Assembly (NCBI GenBank): GCA_050178385.1
Contig: JBFXGD010000040.1
Location: forward strand, 1 to 24,245
Direction: 5' to 3'
Origin: Calditrichaceae bacterium
Lineage (GTDB): Bacteria; Calditrichota; Calditrichia; Calditrichales; JBFXGD01
Length of the DNA: 24,245 nt
Shown: in pieces, positions 1-16,330 of the stretch
Layout of the letters: each line of letters starts with the position of its first letter
Numbering within the stretch: position 1 is the first letter of the stretch
Made by a program: the position numbers and the translations under genes
The notes under the pieces: generated by a model
Seen by the model: the letters and a program-made list of their open reading frames with translations, nothing else
Database searches by the model: none
Told to the model about the DNA's origin: nothing

Positions 1-17
1 CGACGCTCTTCCGATCT
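1..17. other. Illumina TruSeq adapter remnant (assembly artefact)
   Basis: CGACGCTCTTCCGATCT matches the 3' end of the Illumina read-1 primer. The reverse complement AGATCGGAAGAGCGTCG is the classic adapter read-through. It lies at the very start of the window. Confidence 0.95.
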
Positions 18-1408
18 GAAATCTGGAAATCATTCTGCAGATAATATCCATTGATTTCATAGATACTAGTACCTTTATCCGTCATATCTGTTTTAACGCC
101 AAATTCGTCAAGATCAAATGTTTCTGAATCACCATTTTCCCGCTCGGCAGTGATCCCGCCGATAATAGAATTCCTTTTCCCAAGGATAAAAAATGACCGC
201 TGCAGCCTTATTTCTCCACCAAAAAGATTAATGTCATCTTCGCTGGTAAATGTGTCGTTGTAACCACCCTCATTCTTACTATTTCTAAAAAAGAGATTGG
301 TATTCAGGTCAAAGCCCGATTCAAAATGCTTTTTGTGTGTGATCCCCATCCTGAACATTTCCTTTTTGCTTCCCGCGAACTTGCTGCTGCTTTCGATTGT
401 GCGCGTTTCAAACTCATCCTTACTCAGAGGTCCGGGAAAATCTGTATCACTCTGTATATAGTCCAACGACAGCATCATATTCCCAAATCGCTCGTAATCC
501 GCCTGGAGCTTTGCGGCAAATTTATCCGCGTTATAGGAATTTCTGTCTCTGTAACCGTTTGTGGAATGATCCGACGCGCTGAGATATACACCGTATTGGC
601 CTAATTTACCGCCGGCGCTCATGGTAAATTTTCTCAAATCATAGGCGCCGAATGATGATTCGATTTTGCTTTCAAATTTTTCCGGGGCCTTTTTTGTAAC
701 GATATTAATAACTCCCGTAATACCATTAGGACCGTATAATGCTGATACCGGACCTTTAAGTACTTCTATTTTTTCGATATTTCCGAGATCAATCCCTTCA
801 AAATCAACCCGGCCCATCGCTTCATTAATGGATATTCCATCGACCAGAACCAAAATTCCTCTTGTCACATGAGAATGCAGTCCCACCCCGCGAAAACTCA
901 CCACATTATATTCTGAATGAAATCGGTCTTCAGTAAAAACTCCCGGAATTTTTTGCAGCATCGTCTCCACATTTCTCATCTCAGCCTGTTTTATATCATC
1001 CATTGAGACCAGATACACCGAAGCCGGAATATCCTTTATTTCTTTTTCCATTTTTGTGGCCGTAACAACGACTCTGCCTTCCGATTCATATATGGTTGGG
1101 CTAAGACTAAAATTGATGGTTGTAGTTTCACCGGCTACCACCCGGATATTTTTTTTTGTCACTTTTTCATAACCGATCAACAATGCCTCTACGGTATAGA
1201 CACCTGGCTTGACATTGCGAATTTCATAGTTGCCTGCATAGTCGCTTACATCACCTAAATATTCGCCTTCGATATATATTTGAGCTTCCTGTAATACTGT
1301 TTTTGTCACGATGTCATTCACATTCCCCATAATGACACCGGATTCCTGAGCAAAAACCATATTTGCAAAGAAAAACAGTGACAAACCTAAAAATGTGAAA
1401 TATTTCAT
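18..1408 (-). CDS. TonB-dependent outer-membrane receptor with N-terminal carboxypeptidase-regulatory-like domain (3'-truncated at window edge)
   Basis: Not in the ORF track because there is no stop codon. Manual translation from ATG 1408 (SD AGGAGAG at 1414-1420) gives MKYFTFLGLSLFFFANMVFAQESGVIMGNV (signal peptide), GNYEIRNVKPGVYTVEALLIGY (CarboxypepD_reg-like), VVVTATK, and plug motifs LVLVDGI and IEKIEVLKGPVSALYGPNGITGVINIVTKK. The frame stays open with beta-strand-like sequence to the edge. Confidence 0.93.
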
Positions 1409-1491: not shown

Positions 1492-1977
1492 TTATTTCTG
1501 TTTGTTCTTTTCCGCCATACGCTCCATTCTGATCGCAGTGGCTGTCTTTATCATTTCTAAACCGGTTAGATATGTACCGCCGTAATGCGCGATAAACAAT
1601 TCTGCATTTTCACTGCTTATGAAAGCAAATGCCGGCATCATCGCGTAAGCCGGGAGAATGTTGCTGCCAACCACAAAACAGGCATCATTAATTTCGATCA
1701 GGGCGCCGGTGTAAAAATCTTTTACTTTGGCGGAACTGTACTTATTTTTGTCCATTAATACTGTCGCGCAGCCCATAGCACAGGCATGTGTCACGGAATT
1801 CGCTACATCTGACAACTCGACCCGTGTCCACATTTTTTCATAAACATCCATTCCGCAGATCGGGCAGGAGCCGATTTTATCACCCAGATCCGGCTTTAGA
1901 ATCGCGCCGGCATTTTGTGAATACCCGATGGCAGTTAATAAAAAAATACAAACTATCATTGATTTTAATGATTTCAT
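1492..1977 (-). CDS. nosL: NosL-family copper chaperone-like exported protein (divergent paralogue)
   Basis: Signal peptide; CPICGM (CxxCxM); HACAMGCA; VKDFYTG..I....A.FVVGS; F...YGG, all resembling the NosL pattern. SD GGTGGAG upstream. Confidence 0.75.
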   Translation of the reverse strand: MKSLKSMIVCIFLLTAIGYSQNAGAILKPDLGDKIGSCPICGMDVYEKMWTRVELSDVANSVTHACAMGCATVLMDKNKYSSAKVKDFYTGALIEINDACFVVGSNILPAYAMMPAFAFISSENAELFIAHYGGTYLTGLEMIKTATAIRMERMAEKNKQK

Positions 1978-2020: not shown

Positions 2021-2506
2021 TCACATTTCCTGTCCAACAGACAGTCTCATCAGTAAATCCCATGTGACTTCGTTAAATTTTATAATTTTACCGCCCTGAT
2101 GATCTTCCTTAAATTCCTCCGCATCCTTTTTTGATTTCAGAGGCACTAGTTCATTTCCCATCGGTCCAAGAATATCACTGTCAATGACAAAATATGCGCT
2201 GTCGGCCTGAACCCACTGCAATTCATAATATTCACGCACATATATCTTTACCGGTTTTTGATCCGCGGAACCTCCGTATTTTTCCGGATGCAGAAAATAT
2301 TTGAACATATCCTTTGGCCCGTCAAAAAACTTTATCGCACCGTCTTCATAAATCATTTCCGCGATCCATTTCGGATAGGGATGAACAAACATGGCGCAAA
2401 CCGGGCATCGATCCTTCTCACCGGGCATTTTTGGATTTTGACCGGCCGCTGCGGTAACGAAAACCGTAAGAAGAACCGACAGAATGATTATTTTGAATTT
2501 TATCAT
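2021..2506 (-). CDS. nosL: NosL-family copper chaperone (signal peptide, no lipobox)
   Basis: CPVCAMFV, FFDGPKDMF, IYVREYY, AYFVIDSDILGPMGNELVP, AEEFKEDHQG are NosL hallmarks. Confidence 0.88.
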   Translation of the reverse strand: MIKFKIIILSVLLTVFVTAAAGQNPKMPGEKDRCPVCAMFVHPYPKWIAEMIYEDGAIKFFDGPKDMFKYFLHPEKYGGSADQKPVKIYVREYYELQWVQADSAYFVIDSDILGPMGNELVPLKSKKDAEEFKEDHQGGKIIKFNEVTWDLLMRLSVGQEM

Positions 2507-2596: not shown

Positions 2597-3091
2597 CTAA
2601 TCGGTTCGGTGTCCGATTCTGTCAAAAATATATTTTTGAGTAAGCCATCCGACATAAATTTCAAGTATCACTCCTTCGCCACTCAGAACAAATGTGGTAG
2701 GTATTCCCTTGATTTTATAGCGCTTCGCGGTTTTTGCGTACTCATCCACCAGCATTGGGAAGGTAACGTTAAATTCAGCCCGAAAATCATCCACATGATA
2801 TTTGCTTTGTCCAACATTTACGCAAAGAATCTCTGACTGCTCCTTCTCACCAAATTGCTCATACGCGTTCTGCATCACGGGAAATTCGGATCGGCATTCC
2901 GAACACCAGTCTCCCCAAAAATGAAGAAAGACCAGTTTTCCCCTAAAATCATTTAAGGACAGTTCCTTGCCATCCACATCATTTAGAATAAAATCGGGCG
3001 CCTGCTCACCAATTTCGGGCATTCTGTCACCGCATCCCATCATAAGCATGAGAATGAGGGTGATAATCCCCATCACTGAGATTTTTTTCAA
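2597..3091 (-). CDS. TlpA/ResA-like thiol-disulfide oxidoreductase lipoprotein
   Basis: APDFILNDVDGKELSLNDFRGKLVFLHFWGDWCSECRSE (CxxC) and cis-Pro motif GIPTT. Start moved from ATG 3142 to TTG 3091, which has SD GGAG at 3101-3104 and gives a lipoprotein signal MKKISVMGIITLILMLMMGC. Confidence 0.88.
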   Translation of the reverse strand: MKKISVMGIITLILMLMMGCGDRMPEIGEQAPDFILNDVDGKELSLNDFRGKLVFLHFWGDWCSECRSEFPVMQNAYEQFGEKEQSEILCVNVGQSKYHVDDFRAEFNVTFPMLVDEYAKTAKRYKIKGIPTTFVLSGEGVILEIYVGWLTQKYIFDRIGHRTD

Positions 3092-3173
3092 TTTCAGATA
3101 CTCCGGAAAAACTCCGTCTCGTAAGAACGGGATATCAATCATGTTTTTTTAATTAGAAGACTTAAAGGATTGG

Positions 3174-3551
3174 TTATTCGGGAGGATGATAAATATCTCT
3201 TTGCAAAACAGGGATACTTAAAAAATCATTTTTTGGTCTTATCAGGGTTTGCTTATCGGGGATTAAAAGCAAATTTTCCAAAAACATTAATTTCGCGGTT
3301 AAATCCATAACCACCGGAACAATCGAGTGCATGCGTGAAGCACAGTGGGTAAAACCGATCAGCCCCGCTTCTTCGTCACAAGTGCATTTCGATATATCGC
3401 CATTGCAACCGCAATTGCAATAATGCACCAAATGCGGAAGGGCTTCAGCCTCCCGGAACGCTTCCTGAATCACCGGTATGAGGGTCATATTAAAAATGAC
3501 CAGAAAGCTCATAAACAGTGCGATGATTTTTTGTCGATTGAACCGAGTCAT
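3174..3551 (-). CDS. Small Cys/His-rich membrane/exported protein ending in HPPE; candidate DUF2946/CruR/CutF-like metal-sensing leader peptide
   Basis: N-terminal hydrophobic helix, central HLVHYCNCGCNGDISKCTC...THCASRMH (6 Cys), C-terminal IYHPPE-stop. It starts 17 bp after nosY in the same orientation. The coding call is well supported; the function is inferred. Confidence 0.7.
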   Translation of the reverse strand: MTRFNRQKIIALFMSFLVIFNMTLIPVIQEAFREAEALPHLVHYCNCGCNGDISKCTCDEEAGLIGFTHCASRMHSIVPVVMDLTAKLMFLENLLLIPDKQTLIRPKNDFLSIPVLQRDIYHPPE

Positions 3552-3568
3552 TTTAAACCGTTTTTATA

Positions 3569-4402
3569 TTATAAATCTTTATTTGAGAATATTTTTACCG
3601 CTATCGCGAGCGGCAAACCGCCCCATGCCAGCAGTGCCGTGAACAATACCAGAAATCCGCTTCCTGTTCCACCCACAAACTTCAAAACTGCTCCTGCTGT
3701 AGGGCCGAACATGATCTTCCCACCCAGGACAAAAAGGGTTCCTACCCTCACGAGATCAACCGGATTTCCAAAAAGCATTCCGAAAAGAACATTACGGAGC
3801 ACATTACCTTCAAAACTGGATGCCAGCCACATGACAAGCAGATCATAAAGAATAACAAAAATAAACCAGACAAATAATCCTATGCTCAAAGCCTGGGTTC
3901 TCTTCATCGTGATCACACTGATTAGCGCGGAGATGCTTAAAAAGATCAGACCTAAAACAAGACTCAGTAGAACAAAGGCGATATAAGCTGTCAGATCACT
4001 CGCTCCCGCTCTCCATCCTATCACCATACCTGCGGCGCCAAAACCGATACCTGTAGAGATCACTATCGCCAGGAACAGACCAAAATACTTTCCCAGCAGA
4101 TTTTCTGAGCGAAGTACCGGCTGTGATATCTGAAGCTGTAAAGCTCCGGGCTCATCCGACGCAAAACTCATTGCTCCGAGAATAAGAGCAACCAACGGAA
4201 CAAGGTAAAGATTCAAATTTAATAAACTCGCCGTCGTGCGGATAAAATCCTGAAAACCGGTAAAGCCGGATATTTTTGTACCCGCAAAACTGATTGTCAG
4301 CGCGATTACGGCAAACACAACCGAAAAAATCATAACCCAACGGCTGCGGATTACTGATAGCAATTCCTGCATGGCGATTGAATTAATAATTTTAATATTC
4401 AT
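3569..4402 (-). CDS. nosY: NosY, ABC transporter permease for NosZ maturation
   Basis: Polytopic membrane protein: IAMQELLSVIRSRW, RTTASLLNLNLYLVPLVALILG, QPVLRSENLLGKY, NPVDLVR. Start overlaps the nosL stop and nosF is nearby. Confidence 0.92.
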   Translation of the reverse strand: MNIKIINSIAMQELLSVIRSRWVMIFSVVFAVIALTISFAGTKISGFTGFQDFIRTTASLLNLNLYLVPLVALILGAMSFASDEPGALQLQISQPVLRSENLLGKYFGLFLAIVISTGIGFGAAGMVIGWRAGASDLTAYIAFVLLSLVLGLIFLSISALISVITMKRTQALSIGLFVWFIFVILYDLLVMWLASSFEGNVLRNVLFGMLFGNPVDLVRVGTLFVLGGKIMFGPTAGAVLKFVGGTGSGFLVLFTALLAWGGLPLAIAVKIFSNKDL

Positions 4403-5162
4403 AAAATTCCTTTGTTTCTTCTGCCAGATGTGCTCCGGTTACCATGAGCCTGCCAATTATTTTATCTGACTTATTTTCAAAAATATCAAACCGGTCGCCT
4501 GGTTTATCAACTTTTAATCTATACATTCTTGACTCCCCGTATGGAATTTCCATTTGCACTTCAGGATAATTCCGGATGCTTATAGAAGCATCCTTATCTG
4601 TCCGGTTCGATATACGAATCTGAATGATCTGATTCAAAGCCGTTTCAAATACTTCCGGACTAAGTCCATTCTGCTTATATTCCGCGCGGAGATACTGATC
4701 CGGTTCCTGATACTCATCCCACATTTTATTCCAGGAGAGAATGTCAGATTCACCAATAGAATTTTTAAATTCCAGAGCTGTATTCGAATCGCTGTATGCT
4801 GTTACATTAAAATCCATTACGGGAGTGCGATAATTTCCTCTGACAAAAAGAGCGCTGTCTGCCGCAACCCAGGTTTTTGTGTCGTACGCGATGACATAGT
4901 ATTTTAGAATACTATTCTTTTCTTTTGCGCGTCCGCCTGAAAAATATTGGATCATGCAGATAGGGTGATCAAATTTTACAATTTCTCCGTTCTTCTTAAT
5001 TAATTCTGCGGCATACTCAAGATCCAGTATCTCCATCCGGCATGTTATGCAAATTTCACCCTTTTCCACCGGCACAGGTTTAGGCGCGTCATTTCCGCAA
5101 CCCATAAACAATGAAAATACAATCAATGATATCAGTGAACCGCTCCATTTTAGTTTTCTCAT
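4392..5162 (-). CDS. nosL: NosL lipoprotein with C-terminal cupredoxin-like extension
   Basis: Lipobox FMG-C; CITCRMEI; KFDHPICM; TPVM. An extra ~100 aa beta-rich C-terminal domain follows. ATGA overlap with the nosF stop. Confidence 0.88.
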   Translation of the reverse strand: MRKLKWSGSLISLIVFSLFMGCGNDAPKPVPVEKGEICITCRMEILDLEYAAELIKKNGEIVKFDHPICMIQYFSGGRAKEKNSILKYYVIAYDTKTWVAADSALFVRGNYRTPVMDFNVTAYSDSNTALEFKNSIGESDILSWNKMWDEYQEPDQYLRAEYKQNGLSPEVFETALNQIIQIRISNRTDKDASISIRNYPEVQMEIPYGESRMYRLKVDKPGDRFDIFENKSDKIIGRLMVTGAHLAEETKEFYEY

Positions 5163-8711: not shown

Positions 8712-10676
8712 TTAATTAATGAGCTTTGCATGTTTGATTTTGTTAGCAGGAGTAATCTCTAGTTTATCAGCACCCTTCGGTTTTACCAATAGATAACCCT
8801 GCATCTCCTGATGCAGCGCCGAACAGAAATTGGTGCAATAGTACGGCCAGACACCCGGTTTATTTGCCTTTAGAGTAAGTGTCTTGGTTTCACCCGGGAA
8901 TAAATCTGTGTTAACATCATACTCACAAATTGCAAAACCATGAATTTCATCCCGCATTTCTTCAATATTTGTCAAATGAATTGTTAGATTATCCCCTTCA
9001 ACACATTCGATTTTTGTGGGTGCTAATGTGCTTCGGACAACAGTCATCCATACTTCTACGTTGTTTCCGTTTCTCACAACTTTGGCATCTTTAGAATCCC
9101 AAACCGCATTTGGATGCTCATTAAAAATAGCATCGGGAGGAGCGTCTGAACCTTTTTTGTAAAACATTTCCACAACATTGGAAGCGATCAGATCAGCTTT
9201 GATAAAAACCGCATAATGAGGTTCCGGCTCTGGGAATGCCTGGAATATCATTTTCATTTTTTCACCGGAGATATCTATCAATTGTCCGCTCTCCGGCATA
9301 TCCGGGCCGACGGGTAAATGCGTTCCTTTTGACAATTTGTTAAGAGACAACAGCCAGTTTCCGTGAGGATGCATCGTTTCTCCATGAGCTACCGCCAGAT
9401 GCCCGACATTGTAGGCTACGGGAATCTTATCAACCAGTTCCCATTTATCATTCAGACCAACACTCCATTTGGCGATCGCGCTTTCAACAAACAGACTGGT
9501 ATAGGCATAACCTTTTTCATCGAACTGAGTGTGAAGCGGACCAAGCCCCACCGTTACTTCCGCTTCTCTTACGGCGTCATATCTTAATACCGGAATACCA
9601 TCTTCATCCCCTTCAAAGTCTTTGTTGGCAATTGCCTGCTGAATTTTTTCAAAACTGAAAATGGAAACTGTTGGAGACAGTTTCCCATTACCAACGATAT
9701 ATTTGCCGTCCGGAGTTACGTCAACTCCGTGAGGACTTTTCGGACAGGGCATCAGGTATACTAAACCAGGATTCTTGTCCGGATCAAGCACGGGGACTCC
9801 ACCAAGCATAATCGTTTTTCCGGAGTCTTTTATGTTTTTTTCGGCAAGCTTCCAATTGACAACGGCTATATAGTCCATTTCCTTTTGAGAAGCTGTTACT
9901 TCCAGAACACCTGTTGCTCTCTCTGAATTATAGCATGTCCAGAATGCCCATCCGTCACTCGGACCTTTACCGGCATCACCAAGATCAAAATTGAAAGGCG
10001 GCATCAATATTTCCCAGCCATAACTAAAATGACCGTCAACGGGATCAATTTTAATACCGGCCACAACTCCTTTATATGATTTCGCATAATTATCGACGTC
10101 CTCATATTTTCCCTTTGGAAGTGGTATAGAAAAACGGCTGGCCATTAATGAATACTCTGTATTCGGAGTCACATAAGCGGACCCATGATCACCCATAACA
10201 TTGGGAACCGGTCCAAATACTTCAACCGTCCTGAATGTCCGGAGATCAATTCTTGCCGTACGGTTATTGGCGTTATCGTTTACAAATAACCATCTTCCAT
10301 CATAATCACCATTCGTCTCACTCGGTGCGGGGTGATGTATGTCTCCCCATCTGAAATCACCCATCAACTCTTCACTCTCAATGTCAAATCCGTATCCTGT
10401 AGCCGCATAATCCTGAAATACGGGAATCGTACGAATATGACGCATTGATGGGACGCCATAAACATACACACATCCGTTATGCCCACCGGACAGGAATACA
10501 TAGTAATCATCAAAATCACCCGGAGCGACATAAGTTCTAAGTGCATTTTCAGCGACTTCGCTCCTGGCAGTGGTCGCCTGTTTTTCTCCTCCGCCACATC
10601 CACCGCCCATAAACATCATAAAGATGCCAGCGATTATAAAAGTGGTCAGCATTGGAACTAAAATACTGCGTTTCAT
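8712..10676 (-). CDS. nosZ: Nitrous-oxide reductase, clade II (Sec-dependent)
   Basis: FLSGGHNG..YVYGVPSMR; CuZ His motifs DIHH, GDH, PHG, GPLH, GHL, EPH; CuA HGF...CTNFCSALHQEM. No twin-arginine signal. SD AGGAGGA; nosB downstream. Confidence 0.98.
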   Translation of the reverse strand: MKRSILVPMLTTFIIAGIFMMFMGGGCGGGEKQATTARSEVAENALRTYVAPGDFDDYYVFLSGGHNGCVYVYGVPSMRHIRTIPVFQDYAATGYGFDIESEELMGDFRWGDIHHPAPSETNGDYDGRWLFVNDNANNRTARIDLRTFRTVEVFGPVPNVMGDHGSAYVTPNTEYSLMASRFSIPLPKGKYEDVDNYAKSYKGVVAGIKIDPVDGHFSYGWEILMPPFNFDLGDAGKGPSDGWAFWTCYNSERATGVLEVTASQKEMDYIAVVNWKLAEKNIKDSGKTIMLGGVPVLDPDKNPGLVYLMPCPKSPHGVDVTPDGKYIVGNGKLSPTVSIFSFEKIQQAIANKDFEGDEDGIPVLRYDAVREAEVTVGLGPLHTQFDEKGYAYTSLFVESAIAKWSVGLNDKWELVDKIPVAYNVGHLAVAHGETMHPHGNWLLSLNKLSKGTHLPVGPDMPESGQLIDISGEKMKMIFQAFPEPEPHYAVFIKADLIASNVVEMFYKKGSDAPPDAIFNEHPNAVWDSKDAKVVRNGNNVEVWMTVVRSTLAPTKIECVEGDNLTIHLTNIEEMRDEIHGFAICEYDVNTDLFPGETKTLTLKANKPGVWPYYCTNFCSALHQEMQGYLLVKPKGADKLEITPANKIKHAKLIN

Positions 10677-12014: not shown

Positions 12015-13397
12015 TCAGAATCGAACCGGTATTGAAGGCCAGGCTTCCCATGGCCAGTAAAAATCATAAAATGTGCCGCGCATGAATGTGCCGACAAAAA
12101 CAAGTATCAGAATCACGATAACAATGATGATAAAAATCAGATTTTGTCTATTTCTACCCTTATGAAACCAAACCCCTATCGACCGGGTATCACTTTTGTC
12201 GATAAACGGCCAGGCGGCAAGTAAAACAAGAAGCACGCCGGGTATGATAATACCACCAATAAGCGCTCCATTCAGCATATAATCACCAATTTTGAATGAT
12301 GTATCCGCCACCAGTTCCTGCAGCCATAAAAAATACCAGGGCGCCTTTGCGACATCAGGAGTAACACCCGGATTTGCCGGCGCTTCGAGAGGCGCGTGAA
12401 ATAACATTGATAAAACCGTTGTCACAAGAAATGTCAGAATAAAAACGGTAAGGATTCTTCTTGGTAAAAACGGACTGGTATTGAGAGTATCATCTTCAGA
12501 TACCATTGAAGTGATAACGCTGGGTCTTTGTCCCCTGGCGATTCCCAAAAGTGAGTATGTTTTTGATGAGGTGGCCTCAATCGTTTTCTCTTTTCTTTCC
12601 AGAGCGAGATGATCAACACAGGCCAGTCCGCCGTCTTTGCGTATTCGCCACATGTGGTAAGAAATAAGCAGAAGAAGAAAAATCGGCAGAAACGCCACAT
12701 GCAGCACATAAAACCGGATCAGTGTGTTTTGCTCAATCTGATTGCCGCCAAGAAGAAGATAGCTCATCGTGTCACCGATCAGCGGCGCGGCCTTCGCGAT
12801 ATTTGTCCCGACAGTAATCGCCCAGTAGGCAAGCTGATCCCAGGGCAGAAGGTATCCGGTAAATGAAAGAAACATGGTGAGAAGGAGTAAAACTATTCCC
12901 GACAGCCAGTTCACCGCCCTGTTTGCGCCAATGACGCCAGAGCTGCGGTATGCTCCTGTTAAAAACACCCTTACCATATGAAAAAATACAACCGCGACCA
13001 TAAGATGAGCCGCCATTCTATGGGTGTTTCTGAGAAGCCATCCGAATGATATCACAAATTCAATATCCTTTACACTCCAATAAGCCCGTTCAATGGATGG
13101 AACATAGTAAAACATCAGGACAACGCCTGTAATTGAAAGGATTAAAAATAATGAGGCTGAAATCGTACCCAACCAGAGGGAATATCCCCAGGAAAGACTT
13201 TTTTTTGTGATTTTTGCCGGAAACCAATGCAGCAGAAAGTTCCGGATAATTGATTCTCCCGCTTCTTTCGCGCTGCGGGGAAGCCATGTCCAAATGCTTC
13301 TTTCCCAAACATCCTGCCAGTACTCCCGCGATAAAATCTTTCCGTTTCCGTTACTTTTTACATCAGGTGCTTCGGTTATTTTTTCTTGAAGATCCAT
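12015..13397 (-). CDS. qcrB: Cytochrome b of a Rieske/cytb complex (b6-like domain fused to subunit-IV-like domain)
   Basis: Heme His pairs in LRNTHR...FFHMVR and FYVLHV...SYHMW; FTGYLLPWDQLAYWA; C-terminal APLEAPANPGVTPDVAKAPWYF (PEWY-equivalent). Confidence 0.95.
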   Translation of the reverse strand: MDLQEKITEAPDVKSNGNGKILSREYWQDVWERSIWTWLPRSAKEAGESIIRNFLLHWFPAKITKKSLSWGYSLWLGTISASLFLILSITGVVLMFYYVPSIERAYWSVKDIEFVISFGWLLRNTHRMAAHLMVAVVFFHMVRVFLTGAYRSSGVIGANRAVNWLSGIVLLLLTMFLSFTGYLLPWDQLAYWAITVGTNIAKAAPLIGDTMSYLLLGGNQIEQNTLIRFYVLHVAFLPIFLLLLISYHMWRIRKDGGLACVDHLALERKEKTIEATSSKTYSLLGIARGQRPSVITSMVSEDDTLNTSPFLPRRILTVFILTFLVTTVLSMLFHAPLEAPANPGVTPDVAKAPWYFLWLQELVADTSFKIGDYMLNGALIGGIIIPGVLLVLLAAWPFIDKSDTRSIGVWFHKGRNRQNLIFIIIVIVILILVFVGTFMRGTFYDFYWPWEAWPSIPVRF

Positions 13398-13413
13398 ATT
13401 GATACTCCAAAGC

Positions 13414-13929
13414 TTAGGAAATATTGAATTCCGTTCCTTTTTTGACTTCGATTGAGGTATCTATAACCAGCTGCTGATCGTCCGGGGCTATATCGATCTT
13501 ATGCCAGGGAAGAGGTGTGGGTGCCGGTCCCGCGTAGTTTGTACCGTCTTCATAAAATTTGGAGCCATGACACGGGCAGTGATATTCATGGTTAATTTCA
13601 ACATCTTTCCCGTCGATTTTAACCGTTTTGGGTTTCGCCAATTGAACATGCTTGACTGTACATCCCAAGTGAGTACACACAGCGGTATGCGCGTGCATTT
13701 TTTTGTGATTTTTGGCGATGAATTCCTTCTGCTCACTGAAAAACTTCACCCCGTCCGGAAGATCTGCGGCCGTGCCGACTTTAAATTTCTGCAGCGGCTC
13801 ATACAGCACATTTGGAACAAACGAGCGAACCCAGGCGAAAAGATTACCGGCAAAGGCGGCAACAATTGCCCCCGCACCAAGTTTGTTTAAAAAGGAACGT
13901 CTGGTTTCTTTCTTTTTTGATTCTGTCAT
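13414..13929 (-). CDS. qcrA: Rieske [2Fe-2S] protein with Tat signal anchor
   Basis: TRRSFLNK twin-arginine motif plus TM helix; CTHLGC and CPCHGS boxes; GPAP. ATG 13929 is preceded by GAGGTG; the track's alternative start is GTG 13938. Confidence 0.95.
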   Translation of the reverse strand: MTESKKKETRRSFLNKLGAGAIVAAFAGNLFAWVRSFVPNVLYEPLQKFKVGTAADLPDGVKFFSEQKEFIAKNHKKMHAHTAVCTHLGCTVKHVQLAKPKTVKIDGKDVEINHEYHCPCHGSKFYEDGTNYAGPAPTPLPWHKIDIAPDDQQLVIDTSIEVKKGTEFNIS

Positions 13930-13944
13930 CGAACTCACCTCATA

Positions 13945-15870
13945 TCAAACTAATTGTTCATCAAATGAAAATTTTTCCATAGTCATTGCATCCGTTGGGC
14001 AAATCTTTGCGCATAGTCCGCAGCGGATGCACAAATCTGTATCCTTGATCATGACCGAGAGCGGCATATCATTTTTAAGACCAAGACTATTTGTTATTTT
14101 TTCTATATCTTCCTGATTGCTTACCATATCCTCGAAAGGTATGATCTTAAGACAATACTCCGGGCAGATATCAACACATCCGCCGCAAAGAATACATTTC
14201 TCCGAATCATATATCGTCTGAATATGACATTTCAGACACCTCTCACCCTGAGCCATGGCTTCTTCAGATGAATACCCTGTTTCGACTTCGGTAATACCTG
14301 TTCTGCGGTCAGCGGAAACGGTTGGCGGGATTTCCCGGTCACACTGTTCATAACCCGCCGGCATGTCGTAGTCTTTGGTTTGAATCACTTCGATTTTAGC
14401 GGTTATTCTGACTTCAGGTTCAGATATTTTTTGCGTAGGATTTGAAAGATATCTATGTATGGAACCGGCCGCGAGTTTACCGTTTGCCGCCGCTTCGATA
14501 AGAATTCTTGGGCCAAATGCCACATCCCCGCCGCAAAAAACGCCCGGTGCGGTGGTTTCAAGTGTGGACGGATTGATTTTTATTGTTCCCTGAGGGAGTA
14601 TTTCCACATTGTCAGAAGCTCTCAAAAACGAAAGATCCGGTATTTGTCCAATTGCTAAAATGACGGTATCAGCTTCAATCATTTTCTCAGTTTCGGGCCT
14701 GAGCTCCGGGTTAAACCTTCCGCTCTCATCGAACAATTTTTCAACTTCAAGAAATTCAACGCCGCTAAGTTTTCCGCCCTTACCGGTAAATTTTTTTGGA
14801 CCTACGGATGGCAAAAATCTGATCCCTTCCAGGGCGGCTTCGTGCAATTCATCCTTTCCCTGGACTGTTTTCGACGCCGGCATTTCATCAAAAGATTCAA
14901 GAGACGCTACAATAACTTCGGCGCCTCCCCGTATCGCGCTTCGGGCTACATCTATGGCTACATGCATCTCTCCGGCTTCAGCAACACGATCCACTTCATC
15001 CATCGGTTTATAGAATTCGCGTATCGCCGTTCTCGCCGCGTCAAGAGCAACGCTTCCGCCTCCGATGACAATAACTTTTTTACCAAGATCTATTTTATAT
15101 CCGCTGTTCACATTCAATAAATAATCAACCGCTTTTACAACACCGTCCAAATGAATTCCGGGCAGATTTAGATCACGCCCCTTCATGGCGCCGGTGCTGA
15201 TAAAAATTGATTTATACCCCATTTTCTTTAATTCTTTTAGACCAAAACCCTTGTGCAGGCTGGCATTATATTTTATCTCAACACCAAGACTCTTAATAAC
15301 GGCCACTTCCCGGTCGATCACACCGCGGGTCAGACGGTATTCCGGTATCCCGAGACGCATCATTCCACCGGGAATAGCCGCCGCTTCAAAGATTGTGACC
15401 TTGTACCCAAGGAGCGCCAGATCATGCGCGCATGCTAATCCCGCGGGACCGGCACCAATCACCGCAACTTTCACACCTTCGTTTCTGCTATTGTTTTTAA
15501 GCAGGTTTGGCAAATGCCAGGTAAACTTGCTCCCCACATCAGGCTTCCCTTCTAATAAGGAATTAACTGTGTCGGGTTTTGACGATTCCGGACCATATTG
15601 CTCCGTGACAAACCGTTTTAATCCTCTAATGGTGACCGCCTCATCGATCTTGCCTCTTCTGCATGCGTCTTCGCACGGCGCGGCGCAGACTCTTCCGCAA
15701 ATGGAGGCGATCGGATTTGGTGACTTCGCCACCAGATATGCATCTTCGAATTTATTTTCGGCGATCAACTGAACATATTTCCCTGAATCGGTATGAACCG
15801 GGCAGGCTTGAAAACAAGGGACATCACTTCTATACCATTCAAAATCACGAAGATTAGTGATATATTTCAC
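13945..15870 (-). CDS. GltD/DsrL-like FAD- and [4Fe-4S]-containing NAD(P)H oxidoreductase with C-terminal 2x[4Fe-4S] ferredoxin domain
   Basis: PCFQACP, CGRVCAAPCEDAC; FAD motif VIGAGPAG; GIPEYRL; nucleotide motif VIGGGSVA; GVFCGGD; ERCLKC; CILCGGCVDICP and CIRCGLCAKICP. GTG start with SD GGGAG; no signal peptide. Confidence 0.92.
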   Translation of the reverse strand: MKYITNLRDFEWYRSDVPCFQACPVHTDSGKYVQLIAENKFEDAYLVAKSPNPIASICGRVCAAPCEDACRRGKIDEAVTIRGLKRFVTEQYGPESSKPDTVNSLLEGKPDVGSKFTWHLPNLLKNNSRNEGVKVAVIGAGPAGLACAHDLALLGYKVTIFEAAAIPGGMMRLGIPEYRLTRGVIDREVAVIKSLGVEIKYNASLHKGFGLKELKKMGYKSIFISTGAMKGRDLNLPGIHLDGVVKAVDYLLNVNSGYKIDLGKKVIVIGGGSVALDAARTAIREFYKPMDEVDRVAEAGEMHVAIDVARSAIRGGAEVIVASLESFDEMPASKTVQGKDELHEAALEGIRFLPSVGPKKFTGKGGKLSGVEFLEVEKLFDESGRFNPELRPETEKMIEADTVILAIGQIPDLSFLRASDNVEILPQGTIKINPSTLETTAPGVFCGGDVAFGPRILIEAAANGKLAAGSIHRYLSNPTQKISEPEVRITAKIEVIQTKDYDMPAGYEQCDREIPPTVSADRRTGITEVETGYSSEEAMAQGERCLKCHIQTIYDSEKCILCGGCVDICPEYCLKIIPFEDMVSNQEDIEKITNSLGLKNDMPLSVMIKDTDLCIRCGLCAKICPTDAMTMEKFSFDEQLV

Positions 15871-15913
15871 TTTGACTCCCGCAGATACAGTTAAATTTTT
15901 CCCCAGGTGCTAC

Positions 15914-16330
15914 TTAATGATTAAATACTCTTAGGAAGTTCTTTAGATTATCACAAAGCGAAAAATTTTTGTACACATCGCAACTATGACAATCTCCATT
16001 CTTACAGATGATTTTTGCTTCAAAACAGGGTTGTTTCTTCGAAATGTACGCGGGACAAGCCTTCTCCTCACTGCAATTATTTATTTCCCAGCAGGGAATG
16101 AGCGCAAGCAGCCGCCTGATACCCTCGATGTTCATCTTTTCATTCTTAATCAGGTGTCTGATCTTTTTCAGCCACTCGAGATCGCGCTCATCATAGATAC
16201 GCCGATTCGTCCCCGTCCTGTGTGGAATAACGATACCCGCATCCTCATACATTCTGAGAGTGTTGGGAGATATATCAAGGATTCGCGCAATATCACCGAT
16301 GGAATACCATTTTTTGATCAATGTTTCCAT
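15914..16330 (-). CDS. MerR-family transcriptional regulator with Cys-rich C-terminal domain
   Basis: YSIGDIARILDISPNTLRMYEDAGIVIPHRTGTNRRIY is a MerR HTH. The C-terminus CWEINNC...CPAY...CF...C...CHSC...C has 8 Cys. Confidence 0.93.
   Translation of the reverse strand: METLIKKWYSIGDIARILDISPNTLRMYEDAGIVIPHRTGTNRRIYDERDLEWLKKIRHLIKNEKMNIEGIRRLLALIPCWEINNCSEEKACPAYISKKQPCFEAKIICKNGDCHSCDVYKNFSLCDNLKNFLRVFNH

Follow-up and report, generated by a model that had tools for sequence, protein, structure and literature searches.

A protein of 125 residues, encoded inside a nitrous oxide reductase (nos) cluster of a Calditrichaceae bacterium, is probably a copper-sensing arrest peptide that acts during its own translation. 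The cluster lies on contig JBFXGD010000040.1, of which positions 1 to 24,245 (24,245 nucleotides, nt) were analysed; this stretch is called here the window. The open reading frame (ORF) in question (P0001; 3174..3551, minus strand, TAA stop included) is placed between nosY and tlpA. Judged by its sequence and by analogy, it would be of the same kind as CruR and CutF, with a family of its own, an xHPP motif at its end and a position in the interior of an operon. The gene belongs to an unnamed family, referred to here as TM-Cys6-HPP (TM, transmembrane), in which the C-terminal motif and its distance from a Cys cluster are conserved, the neighbouring genes recur and the first proline codon of the motif is biased. 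An earlier note on this DNA had described a 125-residue ORF with a hydrophobic N-terminus, a His/Cys cluster, a terminal HPP and copper genes downstream, and all of these features are present; its left limit of 3097 had to be moved, as this position falls in the intergenic region and the ORF ends at 3174.

Anatomy and predicted structure of the protein

The ORF runs on the minus strand (as do all window coordinates below, unless stated otherwise) from an ATG at 3551 to a TAA at 3176–3174. Residues 9–28 (3468..3527) were assigned by hydropathy, by the AlphaFold2 (AF2) model and by the family alignment to an N-terminal transmembrane or signal-anchor segment, with a Kyte-Doolittle 19-residue mean of 2.38. 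The segment is preceded by R3, R6 and K8, and the helix would be oriented with its N-terminus in and its C-terminus out. In the 30-sequence alignment, residues 40–70 (3342..3434) form a His/Cys cluster of the type HxxHxCxCGCxGDxxKCxC...GFxHC, and the stretch from residue 40 to residue 75 contains H40, H43, C45, C47, C49, C56, C58, H69, C70 and H75. A linker of poorly conserved sequence and fixed length follows (residues 71–119; 3195..3341), and the protein closes with the proposed arrest motif I-Y-H-P-P (residues 120–124; 3180..3194), delimited by the alignment and by codon counts, within a C-terminus that reads ...DIYHPPE before the stop. The codons of HPP, CAT CCT CCC (3188–3180), include the sequence CCUCC.

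The AF2 model, calculated with the 30-sequence alignment, shows a helix spanning residues 3–36 with predicted local distance difference test (pLDDT) values of 73–92; the mean pLDDT of the whole protein is 58.5, and the block means past residue 40, linker included, are 42–64. Beyond the membrane helix, then, no stable fold is predicted for the protein by this model.

The ratio of nonsynonymous to synonymous substitution rates (dN/dS) is 0.13 against the orthologue from the same genus, and 0.21 and 0.12 in two further close pairs of the family; together with the existence of distant relatives, these values rule out a chance ORF. A second ORF of 167 residues, located on the plus strand (window 3345–3848), overlaps both the family ORF and nosY; as conservation and purifying selection apply to the genes of the minus strand, it was taken as a shadow ORF. 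A rule-based scan of the genome for paralogues, covering 7398 ORFs of 60–170 residues, returned 15 passes; six Cys residues and a strong helix coincide solely in the 125-residue protein, the remaining 14 passes carrying 2–4 Cys.

Conservation of the Cys cluster, the linker and the terminal motif

No model of Pfam or NCBIfam matches the protein, and a word-based search retrieved as its sole match the orthologue from the same genus, whose genome (the sister genome) has identical synteny and encodes a protein 86% identical. A phmmer search against 1.84 billion representative proteins gave 12 matches at E<=1e-3, corresponding to the query itself, one spurious giant and ten small proteins of 120–134 residues with 27–34% identity, these distant relatives having HMMER E values from 1e-10 to 7e-5. 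The giant (P0008, 3128 residues), a TIG/NHL repeat protein, has no CxCxC at all, and its match to residues 40–80 was discarded. A profile search contributed 16 further members, and a weak match from Gammaproteobacteria (L031) turned out to be an unrelated Pro/Ala-rich protein encoded beside RuBisCO genes. A scan of the phylum gave matches at E<=0.001 in 11 of 86 genomes, of which one is doubtful (G062, a 49-residue match within a 494-residue frame), so the family is small and unevenly distributed. No further relative emerged from four scans run with alignments of subgroups or with individual members. All named members are Calditrichota/Calditrichia. Pfam DUF7732 gave weak matches in 7 of 30 family members (best E 0.0025) and none with the query.

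Identity to the query across the 30 aligned members is 21–41%, the orthologue (86%) apart. The hydrophobic N-terminal segment is aligned in all 30, and the invariant positions are M1, C45, C47, G48, C49, C56, C58, C70, P123 and P124, with P26, G51 and H122 kept in at least 90%. The Cys residues follow the pattern CxCxC-x6-CxC-x11/12-C, without a conserved CXXC. As the earlier note had expected of homologues, the terminal HPP is thus kept, the Pro-Pro being invariant and His standing before it in at least 90% of the aligned sequences; one member has PPP in place of HPP, and the residue ahead of HPP is E, D, F, Y or K.

The same expectation held for the distance between the Cys cluster and HPP. 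From the last Cys to the His there are 51 residues in 28 of 33 sequences, 52 in two and 50 in three, a range of 50–52 in all 33, this set being composed of 26 database members and seven locus translations, some of which are near-duplicates of database entries. The near-constant length of the linker after C70 is kept despite its poorly conserved sequence. In the same 33 sequences neither flank is so constant: 38 to 51 residues separate Met1 from the first Cys, and between 1 and 21 residues follow the Pro-Pro.

Genomic context in six lineages

The evidence on context and codons comes from ten loci that represent six lineages, all Calditrichota, with about 20 metagenomic members left aside. In the window and in the sister genome (L001) the ORF lies downstream of nosY and is separated by a spacer of 82–83 nt from tlpA, nosL, a second nosL and a receptor gene. 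Also behind nosY, it is followed by 158 nt and a ResA/TlpA-like gene in L025, and by 140 nt and a TonB receptor gene in L024. In L021, L022 and L023 the upstream gene is nosL (then cytochrome c in L023) at a gap of several hundred nt, and a spacer of 170–179 nt leads to a TonB receptor gene. A nosY gene and then a PIN/HicB pair precede the ORF in L026 and L027, with a spacer of 162–163 nt before a TonB receptor gene, and in L029/L030 a secreted metalloprotease-like gene stands upstream and a TonB receptor gene downstream of a 286-nt spacer.

The gene that follows at 82–286 nt therefore encodes a TonB receptor of copper type in four of six lineages and a TlpA/ResA protein in the other two, so that copper genes lie downstream in every lineage, which agrees with the position upstream of metal genes that had been anticipated. 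For the four directly downstream receptors the best NCBIfam model is TIGR01778, 'TonB-dependent copper receptor' (E 5e-82, 2e-78, 5e-76 and 2e-80), with bit scores of 257–277 that fall under the curated cut-off of 472; from their sequences these receptors appear to be of the OprC/NosA type. The constant unit that emerges from the six lineages consists of the ORF, a long spacer and a gene for copper uptake or delivery, and it is usually joined to the nos cluster (five of six lineages). The ORF begins 10–18 nt past the preceding gene in four of six lineages, this gene being nosY in three and the inserted HicB-like gene in the fourth, and is or may be the first gene of its operon in two.

Two rearrangements were seen at these loci. 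The PIN-domain/HicB-like toxin-antitoxin pair inserted between nosY and the family ORF occupies 8183–8873 in L026 and 7758–8448 in L027, and the family ORF begins 14 nt past it. In L023 (9665–12037, minus strand) nosD and nosF are fused in a 790-residue ORF that carries NosD and ABC ATPase domains.

Codon bias at the first proline and the spacer RNA

In nine of the ten loci the first Pro of HPP is encoded by CCT, a codon that accounts for 4–19% of the Pro codons in the long ORFs of those loci. In the genome of the window, CCT represents 20.7% of all Pro codons, 27.1% of those at the first position of 1073 Pro-Pro pairs and 8 of 27 at HPP. The codons for the invariant Gly and Cys residues of the cluster, the His codon and the second Pro codon all vary among the same loci. 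Leaving out the lineage of the window, the chance of finding CCT in the five others is about 1e-5, or about 4e-5 with a factor for the Pro-Pro context, by our own arithmetic from the local CCT shares, which presumes independent lineages.

The CCUCC created by these codons is complementary to GGAGG, and the Shine-Dalgarno (SD) sequences of the downstream genes are GGAG, GGAGG, GGAGGG, AGGAGG or GAGGAGG. In the window, the predicted pairing partner of this CCUCC is the GGAG of tlpA (3101..3104). The minimum free energy structure given by RNAfold pairs CCUCC with the SD in the window, L022, L023, L024 and L026, partly in L025, and not in L001 or L027; over the ensemble, 2.1–5.0 of the 5 possible pairs are expected in seven of eight loci. 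As an alternative, the codon bias could reflect a decoding effect of CCU on pausing. Under either explanation the role would be exerted at the level of translation or RNA and not by a protein-docking motif, since a purely protein-level motif would leave the codon free and cannot account for a fixed synonymous codon.

The spacer of the window (3092..3173, 82 nt from the stop of the ORF to the TTG start of tlpA, as delimited by comparison with the sister genome) is 86% identical between the two genomes, compared with 67–74% at third codon positions; no such excess was found in two other close pairs. A short terminator-like hairpin, CCGUU...GACGG followed by a U-run, is located at 3114..3130 and is weak and partly kept in the sister genome. 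Attenuation by intrinsic termination was considered and rejected: the spacer holds this single weak hairpin, and the region as a whole has 5 terminator-like sites where 2.6 are expected, which is not significant. No riboswitch or known RNA was found by Rfam at gathering scores in the window and six loci.

Comparison with known arrest peptides

The closest functional parallel is CruR (BP2923) of Bordetella pertussis, a member of DUF2946 (PF11162). The report on this protein (Roy et al. 2022, PMC9426467) describes a CXXC motif and a RAPP motif three residues from the end, separated by 45 residues with a conservation to 1–2 residues, and an export signal in more than 95% of the homologues. These are first in their operons and are followed by a long spacer, usually in company of TIGR01778 receptor and AhpC_TSA genes; the arrest is lifted by copper, after which Rho causes termination ahead of the receptor gene (PMC9426467). 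Compared with what is described there, the present family shares the small size of an exported protein (145 residues in CruR, 125 here), a Cys motif combined with a C-terminal Pro-Pro few residues before the stop, a conserved Cys-to-Pro-Pro spacing (45 +/- 2 there, 51 +/- 1 here), and a long spacer (162 nt there, 82–286 nt here) that leads to a TonB receptor. It differs in having six Cys in the arrangement CxCGCxG..xxCxC...C instead of CXXC, xHPP instead of RAPP, a distribution in Calditrichota instead of Proteobacteria, and no evident Rho site.

In language-model comparisons the clusters of DUF2946/CzcI, DUF6769 and DUF6660 came out as look-alikes of the protein at 0.93–0.94, with 101–123 shared features, values that fit distant relatives as well as mere look-alikes and serve as a lead only. 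Two DUF2946 members were found across the 98 genomes searched, and a word-based search retrieved nothing beyond its query. For comparison, two DUF2946 genes of Gammaproteobacteria were examined (L032 1459–2512 and L033 457–852), with proteins that end in ...IRAPPENRIF and ...IRAPPHAV directly before the stop and Pro codons CCA CCT and CCA CCA, respectively. A 176-residue His-rich protein encoded 3' of one of them is presumably PCu(A)C-like, and the proline-rich protein after it presumably TonB-like, while a thioredoxin-fold protein near the other was taken to be Sco-like.

For CutF of Rhodobacter capsulatus, the original report describes stalling induced by copper, control of a detoxifying multicopper oxidase, and a stem-loop that masks the SD of the next gene (Ozturk et al. 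2023, PMC9973294). The CutF protein itself is reported to escape detection or to be degraded quickly in vivo. A paused ribosome that frees a masked SD agrees with the CCUCC:GGAG(G) pairing predicted here; CutF differs in its CxxxC motif and its PPP-type end. The rules given there for CutF-like genes are a length below 150 residues, a Pro-Pro in the last 15 residues, an N-terminal export signal and a gene on the same strand within 1000 nt downstream (PMC9973294). The ORF of the window is CutF-like by these rules: its Pro-Pro is followed by a single residue, it has a helix at the N-terminus and tlpA begins 82 nt downstream. One of the 26 database members (P0021, with a tail of 21 residues) falls outside the 15-residue rule.

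The earlier note had also stated that it had not seen this layer of control described for nos clusters, which stands in part. The same source reports that nosZ or nosR often has a CutF-like gene ahead of it, at a very short distance or in overlap (PMC9973294), so that a copper-sensing leader associated with nos is not a new idea. The family ORF is placed at the tail of the nos cluster and not ahead of nosZ or nosR, and neither the TM-Cys6-HPP family nor its motif or nos-tail position was found in the literature searched, with the proviso that members may be included in list D of Ozturk et al.

A wider group of arrest peptides carries RAPP-like motifs, defined as [R/Q/H]-[A/G]-P-P (Fujiwara et al. 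2024, PMC10987492), and RAPP/RGPP proteins were reported upstream of metal-homeostasis and thioredoxin-domain genes (Fujiwara et al. 2025, PMC12992588). As described in these sources, SecM, ApdA, ApdP and the RQH family resemble the TM-Cys6-HPP proteins: they are small, are secreted or inserted in the membrane, and combine a conserved xxPP at the C-terminus with a poorly conserved sequence ahead of it; the TM-Cys6-HPP family differs from them in not lying upstream of sec or yidC genes.

A further parallel was observed within the phylum. DUF6660 (PF20365), an uncharacterised family of Bacteroidota type, has one Calditrichota example (L034 1438–1743, minus strand) with an N-terminal helix, Cys clusters, a linker and an end that reads ...IWQPPDSDR before the stop; its Pro codons are CCT CCC and a TonB receptor gene lies 85 nt downstream. 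It differs in its Cys pattern, in WQPP instead of xHPP and in a Cys-to-Pro-Pro spacer of about 38 residues, and hhalign of the family against one DUF6660 protein gave 2.6% with only the last 17 columns aligned. By analogy, DUF6660 may be another family of arrest-type metal sensors.

Proposed mechanism

The observations above lead us to infer the following on export topology, copper binding and arrest, on the sign of the response and on the route of output. The N-terminal helix, oriented N-in and C-out, would direct the growing chain to SecYEG, the Sec translocon, and so expose the six-Cys cluster in the periplasm, and the ribosome would pause at the Pro-Pro of I-x-H-P-P. With the ribosome on Pro123/Pro124, C70 is counted at 53 residues from the peptidyl-transferase centre and C45–C58 at 65–78 residues. 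These distances approximately match the length of the ribosomal tunnel plus the translocon, and therefore the whole Cys cluster would have just reached the periplasm at the pause. Binding of Cu(I) to the cluster would alter the pulling force on the chain and hence the lifetime of the pause. Two routes of output can be envisaged: the paused ribosome would cover CCUCC and free the downstream SD, or it would shield the long untranslated spacer from Rho. By analogy with CruR, low copper would give a long pause with the downstream genes on, and high copper would give release with the genes off; the opposite sign to CutF is expected because the targets are genes for uptake and delivery. The controlled genes would be tlpA-nosL-nosL-TonB receptor in the window and a receptor of the OprC/NosA type in most relatives. 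The 17-nt gap to nosY suggests that the ORF is co-transcribed with nosDFLY, and in this scenario the output would need both transcription of nos and shortage of copper. A more elaborate version, in which the Pro-Pro codons are at once arrest site and anti-SD, CCU is under selection, the pause is set by Cu(I) and the position behind nosY creates an AND gate, is put forward here tentatively and is more doubtful than not.

Several points weigh against the assignment as a CruR/CutF-type arrest peptide. A fixed linker length and low AF2 confidence would also be compatible with a small metal-dependent fold. The earlier note had pointed to DUF2946, and here the search gave a negative answer: none of the 30 family members matches DUF2946 in Pfam at E<=10 (nor DUF6660, DUF6769 or CzcI), PF11162 is unmatched in the whole genome at E<=1, and the family profile reached 1.3% when compared by hhalign with one DUF2946 protein, a weak test given the single-sequence template. 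The family ORF is internal to the operon in four of six lineages, whereas CruR is described as a first gene (PMC9426467). Its motif, with His at the A/G position and E, D, F, Y or K before it, falls outside the RAPP-like definition as printed (PMC10987492), and arrest at xHPP was not found documented in the literature examined. In the sister genome the first Pro is encoded by CCA, and little CCUCC:SD pairing is predicted there (0.68). After shuffling of the spacer interior, 28–47 of 60 sequences reach the native pairing in L022, L023, L024 and L025 (only 2–10 of 60 do so in the window, L001, L026 and L027), which indicates that the pairing rests on complementarity and not on a conserved spacer architecture; likewise the spacer fold of the window is no stabler than its shuffles (z 0.66). 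The spacers lack the C-rich, G-poor character of classic Rho sites, and the codon and context evidence is limited to 10 loci in six related lineages of one phylum.

In view of the undetectable match to DUF2946, the ORF was assigned to a family of its own that is of one functional kind with CruR, which is in line with the earlier proposal of a sensor analogous to CruR and CutF (DUF2946-like). With conservation of the motif, of the spacing and of the position as predicted, a codon-level signal that had not been foreseen, and the DUF2946 search as the one of four computational checks that came out otherwise, the interpretation as a copper sensor is supported at the level of sequence.

Alternative explanations

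The most serious alternative is possible though unlikely in our estimate: the product would be a stable Cu(I)-binding protein, anchored in the membrane and facing the periplasm, that acts in trans as a chaperone or as a buffer akin to metallothionein and passes copper from the receptor to NosL, TlpA or NosZ, with I-x-H-P-P serving as a docking or metal-ligand motif. The compact cluster of six invariant Cys plus several His, the neighbours that handle copper (NosL, TlpA and the copper-type TonB receptors) and the purifying selection across the whole protein would all be natural for such a protein, and the low pLDDT is no bar to it, as metal-dependent folds are beyond AF2. A chaperone, however, leaves unexplained the retention of the rare CCT at the first Pro, given the varied codons of other invariant residues, the linker length kept to +/-1 while the flanks differ by 13–20 residues, and the constant spacer of 82–286 nt; besides, the membrane helix is the only structure predicted with confidence. 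The two roles are not exclusive, and a Cu(I) chaperone could at the same time be a cis-acting leader.

It is improbable, though less so than the last alternative below, that the ORF is a cis-acting Pro-Pro leader that responds to another signal, such as zinc or another thiophilic metal, the periplasmic redox state, or Sec/secretion load. A thiol:disulfide oxidoreductase gene directly downstream in two lineages and the YncD/PqqU-like rather than OprC-type receptor of the window would fit this proposal. Against it, TIGR01778, the copper receptor model, is by a wide margin the best model of the next gene in four of six lineages, the module abuts the nos cluster in five of six, and NosL genes follow the ORF in the window. 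Each dimer of the enzyme encoded by the nos cluster requires 12 Cu.

It is very unlikely that the ORF encodes the precursor of a chalkophore-like peptide, one that binds copper, is modified and secreted, and is taken up by the adjacent TonB receptor: a small Cys-rich protein does adjoin a TonB receptor, and MbnPH-like genes are mentioned for CruR operons by Roy et al. (PMC9426467), but genes for modification, protease or export were seen in none of the examined loci, the N-terminal membrane anchor and the length of 125 residues are unlike known precursors, and the invariant C-terminal Pro-Pro with its fixed spacer would have no role.

Other features of the nos cluster in the window

The genes of the minus strand are ordered as Rieske protein, cytochrome b, multihaem cytochrome c, nosZ (8712–10676), two small membrane or unknown proteins and nosD, followed by nosF, a NosL-like gene (256 residues), nosY, the 125-residue ORF, tlpA, nosL, a divergent nosL and the TonB receptor gene. 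nosY, which encodes an ABC-2 permease (3569..4402), ends 17 nt ahead of the start of the ORF. The tlpA gene encodes a TlpA/ResA-type thiol:disulfide oxidoreductase lipoprotein (2597..3091; Pfam AhpC-TSA/Redoxin, E 2e-26). It had been listed as 2597–3142 with an ATG at 3142; in the sister genome this codon is TTG, and a 1-nt indel after it disrupts the reading frame. The start conserved in frame is the TTG at 3091, which gives MKKISVMGIITLILMLMMGC, a lipoprotein-type signal peptide ending in Cys, and the spacer is therefore 82 nt long. Downstream are a NosL copper chaperone (2021..2506; Pfam NosL, E 6e-32), a second, divergent NosL-like protein with a weaker match to the same model (1492..1977; E 7e-6) and the TonB-dependent receptor, cut by the end of the window (2..1408; Pfam plug), which is YncD/PqqU-like and not of the OprC type.

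The 256-residue protein encoded between nosF and nosY (4392–5162, minus strand) combines a NosL domain at the N-terminus (E 3e-7) with a weak cupredoxin-like match in its C-terminal half (E 0.0085), which makes it a possible NosL-cupredoxin fusion; counted together with the two genes downstream, it would bring the NosL-type genes of the cluster to three. In the region 5' of nosZ (12015–16330, minus strand), the genes for the multihaem cytochrome c, cytochrome b and Rieske protein may encode a dedicated electron-input complex. Farther upstream in this region, an Fe-S/flavin adenine dinucleotide (FAD) oxidoreductase and a regulator of the MerR family (15914–16330, minus strand) are encoded.

Implications

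To our knowledge, nitrous oxide reductase is the sole biological sink of N2O, and this enzyme fails under copper shortage. If the interpretation as an arrest peptide is true, some clade II nos clusters own a post-transcriptional copper gauge, one that couples copper import (receptor of the OprC/NosA type) and delivery (TlpA, NosL) to the expression of the enzyme. What is new here is a sequence family with its metal site, a candidate stalling motif and an operon-internal position in the clade II nos clusters of Calditrichota. The family would be a candidate third family of arrest peptides, recognisable independently, beside DUF2946 and DUF6660, and its sharply fixed spacer could act as a natural ruler for the distance through the tunnel plus the translocon. 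The conserved CCU leads to the prediction that a change from CCU to CCG would alter regulation and leave the protein unchanged. Should the AND gate be true, the genes for copper import and delivery would be translated only when nos is transcribed and periplasmic copper is scarce, by way of an undescribed xHPP motif.

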